IMG/VR virus record: IMGVR_UViG_2547132272_000009
Length of the DNA: 14,765 nucleotides
Reading direction: 5' to 3' (one strand)
Source of the DNA: a virus
Lineage: Duplodnaviria; Heunggongvirae; Uroviricota; Caudoviricetes
The notes under the pieces: model-generated
The model's input: the letters and a program-made list of their open reading frames with translations, nothing else
Database searches by the model: none
Told to the model about the DNA's origin: nothing
Made by a program: the position numbers and the translations under genes
Part shown: positions 5,172-14,765 of the stretch, piece after piece
How positions within the stretch are numbered: position 1 is the stretch's first letter
How the letters are laid out: each line of letters opens with the position of its first letter

Positions 5172-6200
5172 TTATGCGTATTTGGCAGACAACAGGGTGA
5201 TCCCCTCAGGGCGGAAGTTCCAGCCCGGCGTCGCACGCATGGTATACAACGTGGTCAGGCCGCCATCCGGCATAGGGGACGGGATTTCCGTCGGCGCTGC
5301 CATGTCGCAGAACATCACGTTGACGGCCTGCTGGTTCGGTACCAGCGTGGAGAAAATATTGGTGTTAATGGCGTGACGCGCTTCCGGAACCTCAATCGTC
5401 GGGTTCGTAACGATGATCAGGTCATTACCACCAGCTCCCTTACCGATCAGCGTGTCGTCCTGGCAGAAAATGATGTCATCGCCTGTTGCCTTATCGGCGA
5501 CGTCTTTAACCACCGTTCCCACCGTTCCGGTACCACCACCAGGACGCTGGTAACTGGTCAGCTCAACAATTCCTGTCCACTCCAGCGCCTTCATGAATCG
5601 CTGTGGGCTCAGAATAACAGTCGTTAATGGCTGCCCCAGCAGCAACATGCGGGTTTTCTGGTCAGCAATCAGGCCAAGCATAAATTTAGCCATCTCACCG
5701 GAATCCCAGGTGGTGTAAGAATCATTGCCTTTGCTGTCGTTGCCCAGATTCAGCGTCACTGCGTTCGGGGAGTTGGTGATCCCCTCGTTATTAGCTGCAT
5801 TCACGCCATACAGCAGCATATTACGCAACATTTGAGCGTGTCCCTGACGGTTAGCCAGGCGCAGGCCTTCAATCAGAGAATAGCCCCAGCGATCTGCTGC
5901 ATCAGTATCGAGATAGCTGTATTGCGAGCGGGAAGAAATTCGGTAAGTCATCATTCCGTCATAGCCGCCAGAGATACTGGAAGACGGTAACTGACCCGGC
6001 AGAGACTGGCTGACCTGCGCCTGCGAGGTCATGCGCAGATATTTCTGATAGACCATCAAATCACTGGAACTGATTTTTACCGCTGGAGCACCACCAGCCA
6101 GGACTTCAAACGCCCCGGAAGCCATGCTCTGTTGCACGATCATTTCCGGCAGCACCATTGACGGCGACACAATAGTAGTCGCAGGAGTAAATGCGCTCAT
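5172..6200 (-). CDS. Putative major capsid protein (342 aa)
   Basis: Size and position downstream of the scaffold-like gene. AGGGGA Shine-Dalgarno upstream of the ATG at 6198-6200. Followed by an intrinsic-terminator-like hairpin, as often seen after major capsid genes. Confidence 0.5.
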   Translation of the reverse strand: MSAFTPATTIVSPSMVLPEMIVQQSMASGAFEVLAGGAPAVKISSSDLMVYQKYLRMTSQAQVSQSLPGQLPSSSISGGYDGMMTYRISSRSQYSYLDTDAADRWGYSLIEGLRLANRQGHAQMLRNMLLYGVNAANNEGITNSPNAVTLNLGNDSKGNDSYTTWDSGEMAKFMLGLIADQKTRMLLLGQPLTTVILSPQRFMKALEWTGIVELTSYQRPGGGTGTVGTVVKDVADKATGDDIIFCQDDTLIGKGAGGNDLIIVTNPTIEVPEARHAINTNIFSTLVPNQQAVNVMFCDMAAPTEIPSPMPDGGLTTLYTMRATPGWNFRPEGITLLSAKYA

Positions 6201-8147: not shown

Positions 8148-8961
8148 GTTTGCCTTTCTCCGTTAAAAATTCGTCGGGTAGTTTCTGAGGGGCGTAGATC
8201 GGCAGTGCATCGCAACTGCAATAAACCTCCTCCCCGGCAGCAGTGATTTCGTCATAAAAACCATATACGGGCTTAATCAGCCCCTGCTCCAGCGCCCACG
8301 AATCGCGGAGGAGATAAATTTTCTCGTCGCGCTCTTTGTGGTCCTGTCGGTATTTGTAGCCCGGACGCCGCCAGTTAGAATGCCAGCGCAGAGCAATCGC
8401 TCCACTCTGAACAGCCAGCAGATACTTAACGTTGCTTGCCAGCTTATGCCCCTGGTCAATTGCCACCCGGCGACTGATAAAATCCATATCCTTCACGGAC
8501 TTCTGAAACCCGGCCTTCACTTCCCGGCGATCAATTTCGCTCACCCCGTCAGGCGGAATGGACGTAACCCACCCCTGAAAACGCTGTATGGTTTTCTCGA
8601 TGGCCTGTTCGCGGTTGAGTTTTATCAGGTTGGCACTGGCGAAAATTCGCCTGTCGAGTTCCTTGCGAAACTCAGGTTTCAGTTTTTCAACAGTGATTTT
8701 TTTAGGGCCGTCAGGAGGCTGATCCCGTAATGCCCCGCCGTCGATGACAAGACGGCTGTAGATAGCGGTGAGATGTTTTCTGGCTACGGTATCATCAGGG
8801 GTTTCTCGCTGAGCGGCTACACGGAGTTTCCGGCACCATTCGAGCAATGATTTTTCGCTATCCCACCCGTGATTCACGTAGTAGTTAACGGCATCCGTCA
8901 GAACCTCATACAGCGTCCTGATCCGTTTCTTCTTCCTCACCGCCCGGCTGGAAATTGCCAT
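8128..8961 (-). CDS. Putative head morphogenesis / minor capsid protein (about 277 aa from the ATG at 8959-8961)
   Basis: Follows the portal-like gene, as MuF/gp7-type head morphogenesis genes typically do. The track ORF extends to 9129, but that extra N-terminus lies inside the portal gene in another frame. The ATG at 8961 has an AGGAGA Shine-Dalgarno 7 nt upstream. Function is by position only. Confidence 0.4.
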   Translation of the reverse strand: MAISSRAVRKKKRIRTLYEVLTDAVNYYVNHGWDSEKSLLEWCRKLRVAAQRETPDDTVARKHLTAIYSRLVIDGGALRDQPPDGPKKITVEKLKPEFRKELDRRIFASANLIKLNREQAIEKTIQRFQGWVTSIPPDGVSEIDRREVKAGFQKSVKDMDFISRRVAIDQGHKLASNVKYLLAVQSGAIALRWHSNWRRPGYKYRQDHKERDEKIYLLRDSWALEQGLIKPVYGFYDEITAAGEEVYCSCDALPIYAPQKLPDEFLTEKGKREFNRA

Positions 8962-10342
8962 CAGGCGTCTCCTGCTTCGGTGGTTCATAATTCGCCAGCG
9001 CGTCCACATCAATGATGAGTGGAGCTTCGCCATAGGTTTGCGTGGCATTAACAAGGCTTGCCAGCCATTCAGCGAGGGCGGCGCGGTTTTCAGGATCAAC
9101 CTGTGGCGACACGGCAGAGAAAAGTGCAATCGCCTGTTGAATCACTTTACTGTCGCTTTCCCGGCGTTTGTCCGGCGACTCCTCCACCAGCTCCTGCCAC
9201 GTCGCGGTAAATTCACGTCGCCACTGGTAAAACGTGGTTTTATAGTCGTCGGTTATGATGTCCGGGTAATCATTTTTCAGCGACTGATAAAATTCCTCGT
9301 TCCAGGCGATGTACTGCACCAGGCGTTCGAAATAATCCATCACAGGTTCAATCTGCTGGCGTACACCATCGATATACTGGCTGATGGCTTTCGAGTCCTC
9401 CTTACCTTCACCGAATCCGTTACTGAACGCTTCTTCCTTGATAATAATGGCCGGAACGTCACTCCCGGCGGCAATATCAGCAATGATGTTGTCGCGGGAT
9501 GTATTCAGCGCCCCGTCGATGTTTTGCAGGTTCAGTGAACTTACGTCTTCGTCTTTTCCAATACTCAACACGCCTTTATTTTTGGCGGCTTTCACGTTTT
9601 CCCTTTTACGCCCCGTGGCAGCAGCCATGATCCCGTCAATTTTCGAACCGTTCTGCACAACTTTAGCCACCAGTACGCCTGCCTTCTGGCTGACGAGATC
9701 ATTCGCCTCCATCGTATTGATATAGGATTTCAGGGAATAAAGAACTCGCTGAAACACGCTTCGCCCGGTGAATCCGAACGATGAACTCTGAAACTCCAGA
9801 TAAATCGGTGTGCCGTTGAAGATTTTCAGTGTGCGTGACGGATGCCAGTCTTTTCCGCCAATCTTCAGTTTTTTATTGGCTTCCTGGAAAAACGGGCTGT
9901 TGGGGTTCTGGTCAGTCACCATCGAACCGGAAGCGTTCAACGGATCCCACGCGTTGATATACACGTCATCTTCTGTCAGTCCGAACGTCGGAAGCGGTTC
10001 ACGACATGAAACACTGTCGGTGCCCACGCCGATCGCTGCGGCACCGTAGCAACGAGACAGAAAAAACAGATTTTTAATCTTCTCGTTCACCTTCATGCGC
10101 TCCCACACCTCCTGGAAACGCCGCACAACCCGCTCGTCAGGGTCTGTCTCCACGTTGTACTGGCGCGGCTTACACATCGCCATAAGTATGGGTTTTTCGA
10201 CAAGTTTCCCGCCCAGCGGATGGTACTGCCACAGCAGTTTACACAGTTCATAGCCAATGTCGGTTCCCGGCTGAATTTCTTCAGCCTCAAGAATGCGCAT
10301 CAGCGAAGAACTGAGATTTACAGAAATCTCGATCTCAGCCAT
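8906..10342 (-). CDS. Putative portal protein (478 aa)
   Basis: Called from position immediately downstream of terL, size, and a strongly acidic C-terminus (GGEEEETDQDAV). No catalytic motif expected or seen. Confidence 0.6.
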   Translation of the reverse strand: MAEIEISVNLSSSLMRILEAEEIQPGTDIGYELCKLLWQYHPLGGKLVEKPILMAMCKPRQYNVETDPDERVVRRFQEVWERMKVNEKIKNLFFLSRCYGAAAIGVGTDSVSCREPLPTFGLTEDDVYINAWDPLNASGSMVTDQNPNSPFFQEANKKLKIGGKDWHPSRTLKIFNGTPIYLEFQSSSFGFTGRSVFQRVLYSLKSYINTMEANDLVSQKAGVLVAKVVQNGSKIDGIMAAATGRKRENVKAAKNKGVLSIGKDEDVSSLNLQNIDGALNTSRDNIIADIAAGSDVPAIIIKEEAFSNGFGEGKEDSKAISQYIDGVRQQIEPVMDYFERLVQYIAWNEEFYQSLKNDYPDIITDDYKTTFYQWRREFTATWQELVEESPDKRRESDSKVIQQAIALFSAVSPQVDPENRAALAEWLASLVNATQTYGEAPLIIDVDALANYEPPKQETPDGNFQPGGEEEETDQDAV

Positions 10343-10361: not shown

Positions 10362-11690
10362 TTACAATTCCGCGTAATTACCGTGCGCGATGATCAATCC
10401 ATAGGTGTAACAATCGAAAAGGTCATCAGCACGTTTATGCGCATCTTTGTCTGCCAGGTGGAACCCGGCGATTTGTTTTATGAGGTGGTTTGCGGTGGTG
10501 CGTTTGAATGAAACGGTCTTGTCGTAAGCCTCCCGGACGATTTTGCACATCCCCTGATAGTGGTAGCTGGATGCCATCACCGCCCGTTCGTCTTTGCCCT
10601 TGCTGGTTAGTGCCGATTTAATCGGCGTCATATCCCAGCCTTCGGTTTCCGCCTTCTGGTTGAGGATTGCCCCCATCGCGGCGTCTTCCATAAAAATTCC
10701 CTGGCTGCCCAGACGCGGACGGCATAATTTCGCGAGGCGCTCGAGGTTGTCATAAACGCCGGGGATATATTCAGGAAGCAATGACGCTTTAATTTGCGTC
10801 ACATCCCAGTCAATAATCGTCAGTTTTGGCTCGTCCGAATACGTTGACTCATAAGCGAAATACACCACGCCAGTACCATCATTTTCGGTCCCGCCTTTCA
10901 ACGCCGTATCCATCACTGCGAAAATCATGTCGCAGTACGGCGGCATCTCAATTGGTTGACCGTCCACCAGCAGCTTATCGACATCGAGTAACGCGTCTTT
11001 GGACCAGTCCACGAACTCGGCAAGATATTCCTGCTGCCAGACGCGCGGATCGGATTTCTTCTCCGTTTCCTCCAGTTCTTCTTTCGGAATATACGGATTC
11101 GATGAAGTTGGCGCATGGTGCATGACAAATCCCAGGGATTCATCGTGGCATATCGCGTAGAAAAAATTGCTCTCGTCGATACCGTTTGGTGTGGAAAATA
11201 CCCACGCACAGCCGCGGTAATCGACAAGCGTCGGGCGTATAGCGCGGGGCCAGATTTCCTCGAGCATTTCCGGCGATTTAGTGAATGCGGCCTCATCAAT
11301 CAGCACAGCGTGATATTTACGCCCACGCCCGGCCAGTTTGTTATTGTCCGTTACCCAAAAGTCGATGCGCCCCCCATTACGGAGAATGATGCGCTTTTCA
11401 TTTTTTGACTGACTGAGGATCAGCGGTTGCAGAACGGCGCTAATTTCATCCCAGATTTCCTGGTACTGGCGGTATTGCGCGGTAAAAATCCCCACCCTAC
11501 CCGCGATAAGTTGCCCGGTGGTAGGAATGGCAAATTTCCGCGTAGCGAAACTGGTAGCGATGTTCACCAGCATCACCGTTTTACCCCAGCGACGACCACA
11601 GCATACCGCGTGGAAGCGTTCCTCTATTGCCGCCGTCCATGCAGCTATTTGCCCCTCATGAGGTTTTGGGAGGTAGATTTCAATCGACAT
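10362..11690 (-). CDS. terL: Terminase large subunit (ATPase plus nuclease)
   Basis: Walker A-like CCGRRWGKT near the N-terminus, Walker B-like HAVLIDEAAF, and C-terminal acidic motifs typical of the RNase H-like terminase nuclease (AVMDTALKGG..DGTG, HLADKDAHKRADDLFD). Position between the small terminase and the portal-like gene. Confidence 0.9.
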   Translation of the reverse strand: MSIEIYLPKPHEGQIAAWTAAIEERFHAVCCGRRWGKTVMLVNIATSFATRKFAIPTTGQLIAGRVGIFTAQYRQYQEIWDEISAVLQPLILSQSKNEKRIILRNGGRIDFWVTDNNKLAGRGRKYHAVLIDEAAFTKSPEMLEEIWPRAIRPTLVDYRGCAWVFSTPNGIDESNFFYAICHDESLGFVMHHAPTSSNPYIPKEELEETEKKSDPRVWQQEYLAEFVDWSKDALLDVDKLLVDGQPIEMPPYCDMIFAVMDTALKGGTENDGTGVVYFAYESTYSDEPKLTIIDWDVTQIKASLLPEYIPGVYDNLERLAKLCRPRLGSQGIFMEDAAMGAILNQKAETEGWDMTPIKSALTSKGKDERAVMASSYHYQGMCKIVREAYDKTVSFKRTTANHLIKQIAGFHLADKDAHKRADDLFDCYTYGLIIAHGNYAEL

Positions 11691-12747
11691 TATCCACTCC
11701 CGGCATCGGCAGAGAGTTGTGGATAATTATTTCGTTATTCTCACCACCCACGCCTTTTTTGAGGTTTTCAATCTCAGTGCGCAGCTTTTCGTTGCGAAGC
11801 CTCAGTCCTTCAAGCTCCAGATCATTGCGACTGTCAGTTGCACCACCAGCAGAACTTCCTTTCGTCGCCATTATCAGCTTGATAAGTTCGCGCCGGGCGG
11901 CAGCCTTATCCTCCAGCAGGATCTCAACACCAAATTTCCCGAGCTTTGCCCCTGCATATAATTGCCGCGCATCCCCATCAAGCAGAGTGGTATCAGCCAT
12001 ATAAAGCTGCCCCGTTCCCTCACCGCAGCACTTCGGGCAGTCCGGATTGGGTATGGCGTTATCAACAAAGCCGAGGCCTCCATATTCCGGCTCGGGTTTG
12101 CCATCTCTGGAGGCCTGTGCCGCTGCCTTATCGAATTCTGCAATATCACGCCACTGGTAGAGGTGATTCTCGCCCCAGCAATAACGGCAGTTAACACGGC
12201 GAAATTGTGCCAACTGATTGGGGTCGGCCTGGACAATGGCCATCAACTGACTCACCAGTAAATCCAGGTCTGCGGTATAGCGTTTCTGGTACTGATTGCG
12301 AAACCAGGAAATAGCTCTGTAAACCTTAATATTTCTTAATAACTGACTTGCACCTGCGCTTGCCGCATTCCCCTCAGATTTATACCCAGCCAGGCGGTAT
12401 GCTTCGATGAGGTTTTTACCCTGAGCAACCAGCATCGCAAACTTTGCTTGCTGGTCTGAAATGCCGAATTCAGTGGGATCGAATGAAATTTCCTGGTCGT
12501 TTCCTGTAACAGGAGGGACAACAACCACGGACTTCTTTTTCTCAGTTTTTTGCGTTCGCTTTTGCGCACTTTTTTGCGCAGTTTTGCGCAATTCTGCCTG
12601 CGCATTTTTCGGAGGTTTTTTGATGTAACGACGGGCTGTTGCGTAATTCAGTCCCCTTGCTTCACACCATGCCACCGGAGATATACCGGAGCGGGTGTAT
12701 TCAGCAATATACTCCTGCTGCAACGCCCCCCAGTCCGGTCTGCTCAT
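11680..12747 (-). CDS. terS: Terminase small subunit (N-terminal HTH, terminase-small-like core, internal Cys4 cluster, C-terminal coiled coil)
   Basis: Directly upstream of and overlapping the large terminase by 11 nt. N-terminal HTH (ISPVAWCEARGLNYATARRYIKK). Segment DQQAKFAMLVAQGKNLIEAYRLAGYKSEGNAASAGASQLLRNIKVYRAISWFRNQ resembles small-terminase (Terminase_2-type) cores. CRYC ... CPKCC cysteines. 355 aa is long for a small terminase. Confidence 0.7.
   Translation of the reverse strand: MSRPDWGALQQEYIAEYTRSGISPVAWCEARGLNYATARRYIKKPPKNAQAELRKTAQKSAQKRTQKTEKKKSVVVVPPVTGNDQEISFDPTEFGISDQQAKFAMLVAQGKNLIEAYRLAGYKSEGNAASAGASQLLRNIKVYRAISWFRNQYQKRYTADLDLLVSQLMAIVQADPNQLAQFRRVNCRYCWGENHLYQWRDIAEFDKAAAQASRDGKPEPEYGGLGFVDNAIPNPDCPKCCGEGTGQLYMADTTLLDGDARQLYAGAKLGKFGVEILLEDKAAARRELIKLIMATKGSSAGGATDSRNDLELEGLRLRNEKLRTEIENLKKGVGGENNEIIIHNSLPMPGVDNVD
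12546..12609. repeat. Phased direct repeats of TTTTGCGCA (3 full copies plus 1 partial) inside terS
   Basis: TTTTGCGCA at 12560-12568, 12572-12580 and 12582-12590, with CTGCGCATTTTT at 12598-12609. Spacing of 10-12 bp is roughly one helical turn. Encodes the AQK-repeat basic linker of TerS. Confidence 0.6.
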
Positions 12748-12750
12748 CAG

Positions 12751-13002
12751 TTAGTCCTGATTTTTATCCACCCTGAGTAGTTCGCGCAGGGCAAAGGCAT
12801 CCCCTTTTCTGGCAAGCTTAAACAATGCCGCCCGTAGCTCGGCTTCACCTTTCGCTCTGCCCTTACGGATGGACGCATAAAAATTTGTCATTGCTTCCCG
12901 ATTTTCTTTCAGTCGGTTCAGATCAACATCCAGAACGTCAGCTATTTGTTGTGCAGTCATCCGGCACGCTGCCAGAGACTCGACTTTCGAATACGGAATC
13001 AT
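12751..13002 (-). CDS. Small DNA-binding (HTH-like) protein, 83 aa
   Basis: ORF immediately upstream of terS. Segment MTAQQIADVLDVDLNRL looks like a helix-turn-helix. GGGGGTGA Shine-Dalgarno-like sequence 5-10 nt upstream of the ATG at 13000-13002. Overlaps the 3' end of the upstream gene. Confidence 0.5.
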   Translation of the reverse strand: MIPYSKVESLAACRMTAQQIADVLDVDLNRLKENREAMTNFYASIRKGRAKGEAELRAALFKLARKGDAFALRELLRVDKNQD

Positions 13003-13870
13003 TTGTCACCCCCATTGATATGCAGGGTGTCTTCTTCCTGTATTTTTCGTGAAGGATTTTTACTGCAGCATTGTTCCAGGTGACCTGATGGTGAATGCGT
13101 TTATGGCTGGCCCCCATCAGTGCGATTTTCACGCACGACGGCGCATACATGACAGAGTAAAAACTTTTAACGTAGGTACCGGAATCCAGATACAGTTCGG
13201 TCATGCCACCGCTGTTTTTTTGCGTCTGCTTCTGGCCCAACTGGACGGCGCCAACCGTCATAAACAGTTCACCACACCGTCCGAGGTTCGTGTATGTGTT
13301 CACGTCCTCATTAATGCGCCCCATGAATGAGAACGGTCGGTCAACCGAACAGATAAAGCTGTTCATTGCCTTGCGTTTCACCCACGAAGCATGGCCGCCA
13401 TTGTCACCAAGAAAATCCCCGCCCTGCGACATAGCGATGGAAAGCGCAGGAATTGATTCGTAATACGCCAGCATTTCAGAAAGGATCGCATCAAGTTTCC
13501 TTATCGGAAAATAGGCCTGGTCATAGTTGCGATCCACCCGAAACTGAAACTCGTGATAATCATCATCGAGCTGAATGAAGTATTTACACCCGACCTTTTT
13601 TGCCAGGTCAAAACAGGCATTACGGGCGTAAAAAATTGAGCGACGATCACCGAAATTATCGGCTTCGTCAAAACGACTGGCGATATCGGCTTTGGAAAAC
13701 ACCAGCACCTGTTCACCAAATTCTGCTATGTACTGATGCCGGGTTTTATCTTCATCATCAACAACGATAAAAACTTTCCCGGTATAGCCAGCACGACGCA
13801 ACGTCCGGTAAGTCAGAACTTTGTCCGGACGCCCGTGAGTCAGAATAAAGGCGCAAAAATCATCACGCAT
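12938..13870 (-). CDS. Putative GT-A fold glycosyltransferase-like protein (about 310 aa from the ATG at 13868-13870; the track's longer ORF starts at 13891)
   Basis: N-terminal pattern FCAFILTHGRPDK ... KVFIVVDDEDKT and a hydrophobic strand followed by DxD (YFIQLDDDYHEF) resemble the GT2/GT-A nucleotide-sugar-binding region. No obvious transmembrane segment. The ATG at 13870 is preceded by GGAGGAGGAGG and overlaps the end of the upstream reading frame (ATGCGTGATG), suggesting translational coupling. Fold assignment is by eye only. Confidence 0.5.
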   Translation of the reverse strand: MRDDFCAFILTHGRPDKVLTYRTLRRAGYTGKVFIVVDDEDKTRHQYIAEFGEQVLVFSKADIASRFDEADNFGDRRSIFYARNACFDLAKKVGCKYFIQLDDDYHEFQFRVDRNYDQAYFPIRKLDAILSEMLAYYESIPALSIAMSQGGDFLGDNGGHASWVKRKAMNSFICSVDRPFSFMGRINEDVNTYTNLGRCGELFMTVGAVQLGQKQTQKNSGGMTELYLDSGTYVKSFYSVMYAPSCVKIALMGASHKRIHHQVTWNNAAVKILHEKYRKKTPCISMGVTNDSVFESRVSGSVPDDCTTNS

Positions 13871-14126
13871 ATTCCTCCTCCTCCCCGCCATGCATGATCT
13901 CCACCATGCGCTGCGTCATCCGGACAAATCCATTTTCAATAGCCTGCTGATAATCAATGATCACCAGCGCCGACTCCTCAAAAAGGCTCTGAATTTCAGC
14001 GGGGGCGTGAGCGTAATAGTCCGCAATTCTGCTGAAATTAAACACCGTGTGACGTTCTGCCGCGCACAGGAGGAATTTTTCGATATCAGGCTCAAGGGAC
14101 GCCGAACGTATCCGGCTGACCAGCTC
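13863..14126 (-). pseudogene. In-frame continuation of the ParB-like gene beyond the TAG (88 codons, ends GGEEEEYA, TGA at 13863-13865)
   Basis: Same frame as 14127..14657 (14657-14045=612, divisible by 3). Hand translation of 14126..14046 gives ELVSRIRSASLEPDIEKFLLCAAERHTV with no stop, then runs into the track ORF 13863..14045. That ORF only has a GTG start and no Shine-Dalgarno, so it is unlikely to be an independent gene. Whether this is a nonsense mutation, suppressed amber or readthrough cannot be told from sequence. Confidence 0.45.
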
Positions 14127-14657
14127 CTAAGTTTTCGTATCGTCGTACAGTTCACTGATATCCGGTTTATCGCCTGACGGCTCATAAACAGGCGTATCAA
14201 TTTTCGTCGTGTACGGTTCCTCCTCATTATTTCCTGTACCGGGCAAAACATCCGTCAACAGTTCATCAATTTCTGTCGGGCTAAATCCTGTCAGGGAGAT
14301 ATCAAAATCAGCATTGATTAGGTCCGACAGCTCCATCCGTAACAGATCTTCATCCCAGCCAGCGTTGAGCGGCAGGCGATTATCTGCCAGGCGGTACGCC
14401 TTTTTCTGATCATCCGTCAGGCCAGACAGAACAATGACCGGAACAGAATCCATTTTGAGCACCTCAGCCGCCATCACGCGACCGTGACCAGCAATAATTT
14501 CGCCCTTTTCGTCAATCAGCACCGGATTGGTCCAGCCGAATTGCTTAATGCTTTCTACCAGTTGTGCCACCTGCTCAGGGCTGTGTGTCCTGGCGTTGTG
14601 CGCATACGGAGACAGTTTTTGTAACGGGCGATAGACGATCTTCAATTTCTCGCTCAT
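14127..14657 (-). CDS. ParB-like nuclease domain protein, N-terminal part (176 aa), ends at an in-frame TAG
   Basis: N-terminal region KIVYRPLQKLSPYAHNARTHSPEQVAQLVESIKQFGWTNPVLIDEKGEIIAGHGRVMAAEVLKMDSVPVIVL matches the ParB/sulfiredoxin-type nuclease domain pattern (NxR...SI...G...P.....G....I.GHGR). ATG at 14655-14657. Stop is TAG at 14127-14129, the only in-frame TAG terminating any predicted gene in the window. Confidence 0.8.
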   Translation of the reverse strand: MSEKLKIVYRPLQKLSPYAHNARTHSPEQVAQLVESIKQFGWTNPVLIDEKGEIIAGHGRVMAAEVLKMDSVPVIVLSGLTDDQKKAYRLADNRLPLNAGWDEDLLRMELSDLINADFDISLTGFSPTEIDELLTDVLPGTGNNEEEPYTTKIDTPVYEPSGDKPDISELYDDTKT

Positions 14658-14765
14658 ACAGCCTCGCTTGATGAATAAAAAAGCTCACTAACAGCCAGTG
14701 CGCTGGGTGCGCGGCGGGTGCTGTTGGTGAGCCTGGCATTATCGCAGCCCCTCACTGAAGGGCTG

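Follow-up and report, generated by a model that had tools for sequence, protein, structure and literature searches.

A TAGT-family glycosyltransferase and its ParB-like partner form a conserved two-gene cassette beside phage terminase genes: a candidate DNA-glycosylation system

Introduction

What does a soluble phage glycosyltransferase modify when its gene lies just ahead of the DNA packaging genes? The question is raised by an open reading frame at 12938-13891 of the phage DNA analyzed here (the window, 14,765 nucleotides in all), which the original prediction had read as a GT-A-like glycosyltransferase next to a ParB-like gene. We found that the protein belongs to TAGT (Pfam PF20691), a family already known from phages, and that it is part of a two-gene cassette with the ParB-like partner rather than being solitary. 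We take TAGT to stand for TET/JBP-associated glycosyltransferase, and the family to include the T2/T6 enzyme as well as GT-A enzymes of phage C5-methyltransferase/TET clusters. Its original description is said to be that of Iyer et al. in 2013. Published surveys reportedly leave out 'solitary' TAGTs because these have no 5mYOX or ThyS neighbor.

Results

The predicted frame is present and lies on the minus strand, which had previously been left unstated. Counted from the first ATG (13891) it comprises 317 codons, and the ATG at 13870 is the likely biological start, yielding a 310-residue protein that agrees with the roughly 310 aa proposed earlier (Table 1). All three signature peptides quoted in the original prediction (CAFILTHGRPDKV, GKVFIVVDDEDKT and KYFIQLDDDYHEF) are found in the translation. 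The ORF is intact in the window and has more than 8000 homologues, which form 1332 clusters at 50% identity. Its dN/dS against close relatives is 0.04-0.10; synonymous sites are saturated in the majority of distant comparisons, dN reaching only 0.14-0.33. These homologue numbers and the low dN/dS together establish that it is not a chance ORF; purifying selection acts on the TAGT gene and on its ParB-like partner alike.

Table 1. Features of the cassette and its surroundings in the window
Feature	Coordinates	Strand	Details and basis
Terminase large subunit gene	10362..11690	-	Pfam Terminase_6N; PHROG 2, E 1.2e-35
Terminase small subunit gene	11680..12747	-	Pfam Terminase_2, 37.3 bits; PHROG 51, E 1.3e-64
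Mosaic block	11887..14711	.	ParB, TAGT, small ORF and N-terminal four fifths of small terminase; blastn vs L003, L010
Small ORF	12751..12960	-	69 aa (ATG 12960) or 83 aa (ATG 13002); ORF list
TAGT-family GT-A glycosyltransferase gene	12938..13870	-	310 aa plus stop; in-frame ATG at 13891 gives 317-aa ORF
Translational-coupling junction	13863..13886	-	GGAGGAGGAGG, Shine-Dalgarno run; read directly from sequence
Cut-off ParB C-terminal module	13863..14126	-	87 codons, same frame; matches PHROG 620 positions 155-217
Premature TAG stop, codon 177	14127..14129	-	CAG (Gln177) in intact relatives
ParB-like gene, N-terminal part	14127..14657	-	176 codons, then TAG; ParB_N and PHROG 620 matches

The protein had earlier not been tied to a characterized family from sequence alone, but a Pfam scan provides one. 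Residues 8-222 span positions 4-205 of the 205-position PF20691 profile, scoring 124.1 bits against a cut-off of 27.5 (E 9.5e-36), and the protein matches PHROG 842 with an E of 2.7e-103. The precomputed PF20691 annotation is present on all of the 120 homologues listed. In newer E. coli genomes the NCBI pipeline names the product 'GREB1-related protein'. No NCBIfam or PADLOC model matches the enzyme, and a PDB sequence search with the TAGT profile returned no match at E up to 10. The postulated GT-A fold is supported: the protein has the nucleotide-diphospho-sugar transferase fold, and among viral structures it is matched best by TAGT-domain proteins (E 5.6e-20). Residues 216-310 are modeled at low confidence.

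The DxD motif on which the glycosyltransferase assignment had been based is conserved, with Asp-102 and Asp-103 invariant in nine sequences that share 23-60% identity with the window protein. Arg-14 and Asp-189 are invariant in the same set; Asp-104 and Glu-188 are kept in most of the nine, Glu-188 being invariant only in close homologues. Phage DNA GT-A enzymes and the base-J glucosyltransferase (JGT) are characterized by the motifs R...DDD...ED[Y/F] (bioRxiv 10.1101/2023.12.21.572611). Arg-14, Asp-102-Asp-103-(Asp-104) and Glu-188-Asp-189 correspond to these motifs and we count them as such, the position after Asp-189 being Val-190 and not Tyr/Phe. The protein has a pI of 8.0 and, as predicted, no transmembrane segment (maximum Kyte-Doolittle mean over 19 residues, 1.08).

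Other members of the family have additional domains. Two homologues (P0148 and P0147) contain two TAGT stretches each, and others are fused to SAM-methyltransferase or sulfotransferase domains or, in P0149, to an apparent P-loop domain. A ParB::TAGT fusion was considered for the N-terminally extended P0148, P0168, P0149, P0186 and P0194 and rejected, as none of them contains a Pfam ParB domain.

We analyzed the relationship of the TAGT gene with its ParB-like neighbor. A ParB homologue is found directly upstream in 88/88 TAGT-containing sequences, confirming and extending the neighborhood noted earlier. In a reverse search starting from the C-terminal module of the partner, TAGT is located directly downstream in 80/80 loci. 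The sequence identities of the two proteins drop in parallel across loci. At the ParB/TAGT junction, the minus strand reads ...GGGGAGGAGGAGGAATATGCGTGATGAT. The ParB frame closes with GAA TAT GCG TGA, and the TAGT ATG (13870-13868) and this upstream TGA (13865-13863) overlap, the start/stop overlap being 8 nt (ATGCGTGA). A GGAGG run is located 3-6 nt ahead of the ATG. The ParB end and the TAGT start likewise overlap in the relatives. TAGT and its ParB-like partner thus form a conserved, translationally coupled two-gene cassette, in which the partner is obligate.

The partner combines a generic and a specific part. In an AF2 model of an intact homologue, a domain (residues 1-95) is followed by helices (103-134), a disordered stretch (136-170) and a helical domain (172-254), the C-terminal domain being modeled at low confidence. 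The closest solved folds are Noc, ParB-CTP/CDP, PadC and KorB, over about 140 residues. The only Pfam match is ParB_N (29.1 bits, cut-off 26.3), PHROG 620 is matched with an E of 1.3e-72, and the protein is strongly acidic (pI 4.5). It is not a canonical partition ParB, as it scores 38.4 bits for TIGR00180 against a cut-off of 58.45, and no parA was found in any cassette neighborhood seen. Neither the model nor the Pfam scan revealed a helix-turn-helix or other recognizable DNA-binding domain.

The N-terminal domain (∼140 residues) is 40-56% identical to the N termini of many phage DNA methyltransferases, and matches PADLOC MTase_II (E 2.5e-38) and PHROG 498. In the C-terminal ∼120 residues, the motif Y-T-x-K-I-x-x-P-x-Y-E-P precedes a helical domain in which R-H, E and D are invariant. 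E. coli prophages, Lactobacillus phages and an archaeal virus share this module at 38-52% identity, and in Vibrio phage pv27 it is a stand-alone 139-aa protein adjoining TAGT. The linker motif is invariant even between E. coli prophages and the archaeal virus, and the stand-alone Vibrio partner has kept it too. A PDB search with the module's profile returned only spurious matches to designed armadillo repeats. The module, found only together with TAGT and so far uncharacterized, is the TAGT-specific part of the partner, the ParB N-domain being generic.

In the window, this specific part has been separated from the rest of the protein. The full ParB-like frame (14657..13863) is interrupted by an in-frame TAG, as shown by aligning it with ParB (263 aa) from Salmonella phage SPF_0923. 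The N-terminal part that remains comprises the ParB/Srx nucleotide-binding domain and a short helical segment, along with the conserved linker motif PYTTKIDTPVYEPS. Because of the in-frame TAG, the TGA overlapping the TAGT start belongs to the cut-off C-terminal part of ParB. The coupling originally proposed is therefore borne out for the ATG/TGA overlap but not for an intact upstream ParB gene. In the 88 ParB frames examined, no other internal stop was found. Two other apparent defects were dismissed: ParB in L049-L051 ends at a natural stop three codons early rather than at a nonsense mutation, and the PGAP 'pseudogene' flags on ParB in L001 and L002 correspond to an uninterrupted 263-codon frame by tblastn.

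Does the TAG mean that, irrespective of the role of the intact cassette, the copy in the window is a non-functional prophage remnant in decay? We regard this as a serious possibility, somewhat short of an even chance. The stop cuts off the TAGT-specific module, whose counterpart the 5mYOX/ParB system cannot do without (PMC13229309). There is decay in other loci, too: TAGT carries stop codons in four relatives (L057, L058, L060 and L067), and the Rac prophage of E. coli K-12 retains only the first 86 codons of the window's ParB (ynaK) and has no TAGT. Arguing against decay, the TAGT ORF is uninterrupted, dN/dS is low population-wide and the window is 96% identical to, and collinear with, a complete prophage across 14.7 kb. 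The single transition could moreover have arisen recently, reflect a sequencing error, or be suppressed in a supE host, where Gln would be restored at the CAG-to-TAG codon. Since the TAG removes the partner's C-terminal module, the window copy is probably impaired by this CAG-to-TAG change, its glycosyltransferase gene remaining intact. K-12 ydaY, considered as a possible TAGT remnant, shows no similarity, and we found nothing useful in the literature on ynaK/ydaY.

The earlier placement of the gene just upstream of the terminase holds in the window and in relatives. The small ORF between them shares 23 nt with the 3' end of the TAGT gene. E. coli genomes and SPF_0923 have it as an annotated gene of 210 nt, and its sequence corresponds to part of PHROG 309 'terminase small subunit' (E 2.5e-22). 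In phages of Proteobacteria, Firmicutes and Bacteroidota the cassette is found just ahead of the small terminase irrespective of terminase type: these include at least three types recognizable by Pfam (Terminase_2/6N, Terminase_4 with TerL_ATPase, and GpA) and, in other loci, terminases without a Pfam type. In a haloarchaeal virus it is located about 3 kb upstream of the large terminase, and in Vibrio phage pv27 TAGT and the stand-alone module are found among SSB, exonuclease, primase and helicase genes. The complete E. coli prophage L001 is collinear with the whole 14.7-kb window at 96.2% identity, and the mosaic block is ∼92% identical to prophages with a different head/tail module. The cassette moves together with the DNA-recognition half of the small terminase. 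Promoter and terminator scans of the cassette region gave background levels, and parS-like or other repeats around the cassette did not exceed chance, apart from phased repeats inside the small terminase gene.

Of 5426 complete E. coli genomes, 866 contain at least 80% of a 2.07-kb query that runs from ParB through TAGT and the small ORF into the start of the small terminase gene; 1568 contain some part of it. Recognizable relatives extend to Actinobacteria, Firmicutes and Bacteroidota phages and to a haloarchaeal virus, with Lactobacillus, Porphyromonas and Haloarcula among the hosts of the conserved cassette. T4-like Aeromonas phages were reached by tblastn (E 1e-5) only at 23-26% identity. 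Some relatives adjoin sugar-nucleotide enzymes (an NAD-dependent epimerase, a CTP_transf_3 protein), and one (L099) has a radical-SAM protein nearby and a P-loop domain fused to TAGT.

We next consider the acceptor. Tested phage TAGTs glycosylate 5hmC, 5hmU or glucosyl-hmC, for which a TET/JBP dioxygenase or a hydroxymethylase is required (PMC13216743, PMC8256090). Pfam scans and annotations revealed no TET/JBP dioxygenase within 8 kb in L004-L007, and neither such an enzyme nor a thymidylate-synthase-like or other hydroxymethylase in the annotation of the near-identical complete prophage L001 or in the fully sequenced phages c5 and jlb1. dCMP hydroxymethylase and alpha-/beta-glucosyltransferases are likewise absent from this prophage, c5 and jlb1. 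A scan of 17 diverse loci, taking ORFs of 170 aa or longer from as much as 10 kb upstream of the cassette, likewise gave no source of a hydroxymethyl acceptor (62 representative ORFs; best 25 of 38 Pfam families, down to E ∼6e-8). The TET/JBP (5mYOX) association that gives TAGT its name is thus missing here; Pfam membership does not need it. Of the two kinds of neighbor expected for a modification module, the ParB-like gene is always present (88/88), and no acceptor-making, base-modifying gene was found. We found no literature on DNA modification in phages c5, jlb1 or HHTV-2 or in the Vibrio phages of the set.

Discussion

DNA glycosylation is the function that we infer as best supported for the cassette. 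Tested family members act on DNA, namely the T2/T6 beta-glucosyl-HMC-alpha-glucosyltransferase (PMC13216743) and TET-linked phage glycosyltransferases (PMC8256090). In our best overall explanation, to which we give an even chance, a partner-assisted TAGT glycosylates the phage's own DNA around packaging. The cassette would be expressed at the head of the late/packaging operon, and in TAGT the DDD motif, together with a divalent metal, would bind a nucleotide-sugar. The enzyme would then place the sugar on the replicated phage DNA shortly before or during packaging, with help from the partner. By analogy to ParB-dependent phage thymine dioxygenases, the partner may hold TAGT on double-stranded DNA, or activate it there. 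An anti-restriction role, as originally suggested, might conceivably follow. Several observations count against this explanation: no enzyme producing 5-hydroxymethyl-pyrimidines was found in the prophage, phages and upstream loci searched, no glycosyltransferase is known to act on canonical DNA, the family member GREB1 modifies a protein (PMC7968844), and the partner is strongly acidic and shows no recognizable DNA-binding domain.

TAGT could instead be a protein O-glycosyltransferase, glycogenin-type or O-GlcNAc-type, with its own partner as the likeliest substrate, a reading that we consider unlikely, if deserving of attention. The candidate site would be the invariant Tyr/Thr/Pro motif in the disordered linker (Y148-T-x-K-x-x-x-P155-x-Y157-E-P). 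The motif's invariance from E. coli prophages to the archaeal virus and the stand-alone Vibrio partner suggests, in a disordered linker, a binding or modification site, although it may merely dock TAGT. The TAGT-domain protein GREB1 does O-GlcNAcylate ER-alpha at Thr/Ser (PMC7968844). The cassette travels without other conserved genes and thus needs a universal acceptor, which the partner itself would provide. All tested phage family members act on DNA, however, the partner's generic N-domain is otherwise tied to DNA-modifying enzymes, and the Vibrio phage pair is located among replication genes.

Alternatively, the cassette could be a self-sufficient system that glycosylates otherwise unmodified phage DNA at packaging, without prior hydroxymethylation, with the ∼120-residue module giving access to the substrate. 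The target may be a canonical base, the backbone or a DNA end. We consider this version quite unlikely. If true, temperate phages of both bacteria and archaea would carry a widespread DNA modification that has so far gone unseen.

We hold it for improbable that TAGT is a classical enzyme whose pre-modified base (5hmC, 5hmU or glucosyl-hmC) is supplied in trans, for example from a gene at another place in the phage or host, or on the DNA of a co-infecting phage. Every biochemically tested phage TAGT uses such acceptors (PMC13216743, PMC8256090), the window represents only 14.7 kb of the prophage, and a few relatives have additional enzymes nearby (L099, with its radical-SAM protein and P-loop fusion). 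Yet a candidate enzyme is absent from the complete prophage and from two completely sequenced small phages, none was seen upstream in the 17 diverse loci, and a shared external source of hydroxymethyl-pyrimidines is implausible across Lactobacillus, Porphyromonas and Haloarcula. Similarly improbable is a small-molecule or nucleotide target (a host metabolite or an immune-signaling nucleotide) with the ParB domain as ligand pocket: ParB-fold domains do bind CTP, ATP or GTP (PMC12704722) and some relatives adjoin the epimerase or CTP_transf_3 protein, but the Vibrio phage lineage does without the nucleotide-binding domain, the adjoining enzymes are better explained as donor supply, no PADLOC defence model matches the enzyme and the fixed place beside the terminase would be left without explanation.

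'Solitary' TAGTs have an obligate partner after all, the specific part of which is the uncharacterized C-terminal module and not the ParB domain. If their target is DNA, the genomes of temperate coliphages would contain an unrecognized modification, which would matter for restriction evasion, for sequencing and for phage engineering. With a protein target, the cassette would represent a bacterial-virus counterpart of GREB1-type glycosylation.

We compared the cassette to known systems. Our protein shares with known TAGTs the PF20691 and PHROG 842 assignments, the GT-A fold, the R...DD(D)...(E)D motifs and a C-terminal HH pair, and like them it is soluble and phage-encoded. Unlike them, it has no TET/JBP enzyme, adjoining C5-methyltransferase, alpha-/beta-glucosyltransferase or hydroxymethylase; it is found in a temperate phage, at the start of the packaging operon and with an obligate ParB-like partner, and it is only 23-28% identical to T4-like and Porphyromonas members. 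The supply of hmC-DNA and glucosyl-hmC to the T-even beta-glucosyl-HMC-alpha-glucosyltransferase has no counterpart here. GREB1 contains the same TAGT catalytic domain, but is a large animal protein that O-GlcNAcylates the estrogen receptor (PMC7968844), and the name 'GREB1-related' says nothing about the target of the phage protein. GtrB-type bactoprenol glucosyltransferases of serotype-converting prophages are also prophage GT-A enzymes with a DxD motif. Our enzyme differs from them in its lack of membrane segments (maximum hydropathy 1.08), as originally proposed, in belonging to another Pfam family, with no match to Glycos_transf_2, and in its position in a late operon between ParB and terminase genes rather than beside the attachment site with gtrA or gtrC neighbors.

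Two ParB-containing systems come closer in organization. ParB176 activates the phage thymine dioxygenase 5mYOX176 on double-stranded DNA, for which both of its end domains are needed (O'Toole et al. 2026, PMC13229309). In both cases an enzyme of a DNA-modifying family is encoded beside a ParB-fold protein, and terminase genes often co-occur (PMC13229309). As judged from the model, our partner would share with ParB176 a nucleotide-binding domain, short helices, a disordered linker (∼35 residues here), a C-terminal domain and the lack of a canonical DNA-binding domain, a likeness of architecture as described. The effector here is a glycosyltransferase and not a dioxygenase, and no 5mYOX is present. 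In ParB-N::DNA methyltransferase fusions (PHROG 498, PADLOC MTase_II; Kaljevic et al. 2025, PMC12704722), the N termini are 40-56% identical to the N-terminal ∼140 residues of our partner, and these fusions are also encoded beside terminase genes (Gardnerella phage AB1, Streptococcus Javan530). In our cassette, by contrast, the effector is a separate, translationally coupled glycosyltransferase, and the ParB protein has an extra C-terminal module that is found only with TAGT.

A TAGT-family Glycosyltransferase with Intact Catalytic Motifs

The longest open reading frame at the glycosyltransferase locus contains all three peptides quoted in the original prediction (AFILTHGRPDK, KVFIVVDDEDKT and YFIQLDDDYHEF). 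Its translation likely starts at the second ATG (13870), yielding a 310-amino acid protein with a pI of 8.0. GGAGGAGGAGG stands before this ATG, which overlaps the TGA of the upstream frame by 8 nt (ATGCGTGA), in agreement with the proposed translational coupling. The protein indeed lacks a transmembrane segment (maximum 19-residue Kyte-Doolittle mean, 1.08). It is matched by more than 8000 database proteins and by 1332 clusters at 50% identity, and its dN/dS is 0.04-0.10 versus close relatives (versus distant ones, dN is 0.14-0.33 with synonymous sites mostly saturated). Judged by these homologue counts and the low dN/dS, the frame is a real gene.

From sequence alone the gene could not be tied to a characterised family, but profile searches place it: it reaches 124 bits with Pfam PF20691 ('TET-associated glycosyltransferase', TAGT; threshold 27.5) and aligns end to end with PHROG 842 ('beta-glucosyl-HMC-alpha-glucosyltransferase'; E 2.7e-103). 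The gene thus belongs to a known family, is already named in public annotation ('GREB1-related protein', from the NCBI pipeline, in recent E. coli genomes) and is not categorically new. In an AlphaFold2 model, confidence is high for residues 1-215 and low for residues 216-310. Foldseek comparison of this model with viral models returns TAGT-domain proteins at the top (E 5.6e-20) and also reaches a T4-like beta-glucosyl-HMC-alpha-glucosyltransferase (E 6.8e-4). The predicted DxD motif is conserved, with D102, D103 and D104 invariant among 15 homologues of 59-82% identity. D102-D103, R14, D189 and H260-H261 are invariant in nine sequences ranging from 60% down to 23% identity, which include phages of Lactobacillus, Porphyromonas, Vibrio and Aeromonas and a haloarchaeal virus. 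They coincide with the R...DDD...ED[Y/F] motifs that have been reported in the base-J glucosyltransferase of trypanosomes and in phage GT-A enzymes that modify DNA (bioRxiv 10.1101/2023.12.21.572611). The protein is a TAGT-family GT-A enzyme whose catalytic motifs are intact.

TAGT Is Paired with a ParB-like Partner

We searched the window and 87 related loci by tblastn with an intact 263-aa ParB and with TAGT. At every locus a ParB homologue ends at or overlaps the TAGT start, extending the adjacency originally noted for the window, and the identities of the two proteins drop in parallel. The partner is obligate and translationally coupled. Its model comprises a ParB/Srx nucleotide-binding domain (residues 1-95), two to three helices (103-134), a disordered linker (136-170) and a helical C-terminal domain (172-254), the closest solved folds being Noc, CTP/CDP-bound ParB, PadC and KorB. 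In sequence, the first 140 residues are generic: many phage 'DNA modification methylases', whose genes also adjoin terminase genes, share 40-56% identity with them at the N-terminus, and both PADLOC MTase_II (E 2.5e-38) and PHROG 498 match them. Streptococcus phage Javan530 (locus L094, 4501-5675) encodes a 172-aa protein consisting of this N-domain only, annotated 'DNA modification methylase', which overlaps a 225-aa PHROG 11143 protein encoded before the terminase, possibly a further pair of a ParB domain and an effector.

The last ~120 residues of the partner carry the motif Y-T-x-K-I-x-x-P-x-Y-E-P, followed by FL..AA.RHTVF..IA.YYAHA...Q.LME.SALVIID..AIENGF. They are 38-52% identical among E. 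coli prophages, Lactobacillus phages and an archaeal virus, and this C-terminal module falls into no Pfam family, nor did a PDB search yield a meaningful match. In Vibrio phage pv27 (191 kb; L093, 6459-6875), a stand-alone 139-aa protein consists of the linker motif and the C-terminal domain only; the gene immediately downstream encodes a TAGT of 45% identity, and the pair is surrounded by genes for SSB, exonuclease, primase and helicase. A similar 157-aa version is found at locus L101. When viral contigs were searched in reverse with the C-terminal module, TAGT lay directly downstream in 80 of 80 loci (76 with a full ParB domain, one with the module alone and three cut by contig ends). What is new here is that the real partner module is defined, that its linkage to this TAGT clade is reciprocal and 100%, and that in one lineage it is independent of the ParB domain.

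A Common Mobile Cassette at the Head of the Packaging Operon

The predicted location of the glycosyltransferase just upstream of the terminase is borne out by the gene order.

Features of the window, listed from its right end
Feature	Position	Strand	Remark
Hairpin CAGCCC-N9-GGGCTG	14745-14765		perfect, 6 bp; at the window's very end, cut by the edge
ParB-like gene	14657..13863	minus	first in gene order, before the glycosyltransferase
Stretch common to SPF_0923-type prophages	11887-14711		~92%
TAG at partner codon 177	14127-14129	minus	in frame
GTG restart	14045		sole in-frame restart after TAG
Glycosyltransferase (TAGT) ORF	12938..13891	minus	317 codons
TAGT C-terminal extension	12938-13002		~20 residues
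69-aa ORF	12960..12751	minus	overlaps glycosyltransferase 3' end
Small terminase	12747..11680	minus	
TGCGCAAAA-like words	12535-12600	minus	three to four, ~10-11 nt apart
Large terminase	11690..10362	minus	
Portal	10342..8906	minus	then head proteins, contractile-tail module
Myovirus-like structural module	1500-2837, 5172-6200		

A 2.07-kb query (partner gene to small-terminase start) was matched in 1568 of 5426 complete E. coli genomes. In 866, coverage reaches at least 80%, almost always in a chromosomal prophage. The cassette is very common and cheap to test. In strain TUM1881, a lambdoid, Rac-like prophage is collinear with the window (96.2%), in the order holins, endolysin, small ORFs, ParB, TAGT, 69-aa ORF, terminases. 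The induced phage SPF_0923 has the order Rz, TrkG, ParB, TAGT, 69-aa ORF, small terminase, which is the arrangement of Rac. In the Rac prophage of E. coli K-12 (L096, 5378-5981), ynaK represents the first 86 codons of the ParB-like gene (98% identical), and the glycosyltransferase is deleted; ydaY, considered as a TAGT relative, is unrelated.

SPF_0923-type prophages have a different head and non-contractile, lambda-like tails, and only the stretch listed in the table is common to them and the window. The mobile block therefore consists of ParB, TAGT, the 69-aa ORF and the first four fifths of the small terminase; the mosaic break falls within this last gene and separates its DNA-recognition end from its C-terminal end. 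Terminase genes of varied types come after the pair in several groups: metagenomic phages (with Terminase_4/TerL_ATPase or GpA terminases), Lactobacillus phage c5, where the pair directly follows the cos site, Lactobacillus phage jlb1 and a Porphyromonas phage (TAGT identity only 28%). In haloarchaeal virus HHTV-2 it lies ~3 kb upstream of the large terminase. The position of the cassette at the head of the packaging operon is fixed, and both genes are under purifying selection.

The C-terminal extension of the E. coli-type TAGT, absent from 285-290-aa homologues, overlaps the start of the 69/83-aa ORF and is thus probably a by-product of that gene's insertion. The TGCGCAAAA-like words in the small terminase gene fall in a stretch coding for a lysine-rich AQKSAQKRTQK segment; phased repeats within such a gene are a classic location of a pac site. 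Read along the minus strand, the hairpin precedes the ParB start by ~90 nt. The structural module encodes a tail sheath (PHROG 205) and shows a weak match to a major head protein (PHROG 264); its other virion genes mostly belong to PHROGs of unknown function. The portal gene (16183-17619 in the complete E. coli prophage L001) matches Pfam Phage_portal_3 with 53 bits; the NCBI pipeline's name for it in E. coli genomes, 'anti-CBASS protein Acb1 family protein', looks misleading for a gene in the portal position.

The Partner Gene Is Interrupted in the Window

The ParB-like gene reported upstream of TAGT is present but broken: codon 177, CAG (Gln) in intact relatives, is TAG, a nonsense mutation not previously described and the sole internal stop in 88 ParB frames examined. 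It sits exactly between the linker motif and the C-terminal domain, and restart at the GTG would lose the R-H motif. The window's copy of the cassette is thus likely to be impaired, barring an erroneous base call, amber suppression by the host or a truncated protein that is sufficient. A supE (amber-suppressor) host would insert Gln at this TAG. As for the glycosyltransferase gene, it is intact.

Acceptor and Target

Every tested TAGT transfers its sugar to hydroxymethyl-pyrimidines or to the glucose that these already carry (PMC13216743, PMC8256090). We found no hydroxymethyl-pyrimidine source in the complete TUM1881 prophage (only an N6/N4 methyltransferase near the Q region), in phages c5 (31.8 kb) and jlb1 (38.3 kb), where unassigned ORFs have no Pfam match, or within 8 kb of 60-65%-identical TAGT homologues. 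Among 62 representative ORFs of at least 170 aa, located up to 10 kb upstream of the cassette at 17 diverse loci, were Q antiterminators, lysozymes, Dam and one C5-methylase; TET_JBP was absent among the 25 families listed. The cassette therefore appears to work without the classical precursor pathway. A 'solitary TAGT' has been reported in 288 of 753 phages (PMC13216743), and ~65% of glycosyltransferase contigs lack 5mYOX or ThyS (bioRxiv 10.1101/2023.12.21.572611), the function being left open in both studies. The original observation is confirmed and its interpretation partly supported: fold, kind of family and partner are right, and the putative target is chemically unexplained.

Variant cassettes bear on the sugar rather than on its acceptor. 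TAGT is fused to a Sulfotransfer_2 or SAM-methyltransferase domain at L091 (3418-5190) and L097 (8001-9755), each time after a ParB-like partner, and a protein with two TAGT stretches (P0148) adjoins an NAD-dependent sugar epimerase and a CTP_transf_3 cytidylyltransferase. This suggests that the transferred sugar is further tailored or that an unusual donor is used. Locus L099 (80-3270) encodes a radical-SAM protein, ParB, a 463-aa TAGT whose N-terminal extension starts with a P-loop (GASCAGKS), a small terminase and a GpA-type large terminase, possibly a three-enzyme variant.

We give DNA-directed glycosylation about an even chance. It is favored by the activities of tested family members, by DNA methyltransferases that carry the same ParB domain and occupy the same genomic slot, by the location of the Vibrio phage pair among replication genes, and by the co-inheritance of the cassette with the DNA-recognition part of the small terminase. 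Against it stand the lack of a known acceptor, the acidic partner (pI 4.5) and GREB1, an animal TAGT-domain protein with a protein substrate. The latter is a precedent for protein glycosylation, for which the partner's invariant Tyr/Thr-Pro motif would be the obvious candidate site; we regard this as unlikely. Glycosylation of otherwise unmodified DNA is a minority reading and, if true, would be a real surprise; the remaining alternatives are each highly improbable.

In the most likely mechanism, TAGT would use a nucleotide-sugar, with a metal ion held by the DDD motif, and would act on the replicated phage DNA shortly before or during packaging. The C-terminal module of the partner may dock or activate TAGT, and the ParB domain, where present, may link this to DNA or a nucleotide switch in the manner of the dioxygenase system. 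There, a phage thymine dioxygenase is activated on double-stranded DNA by a ParB protein, both terminal domains of which are required, and the architecture of our partner is that described for this activator (PMC13229309).
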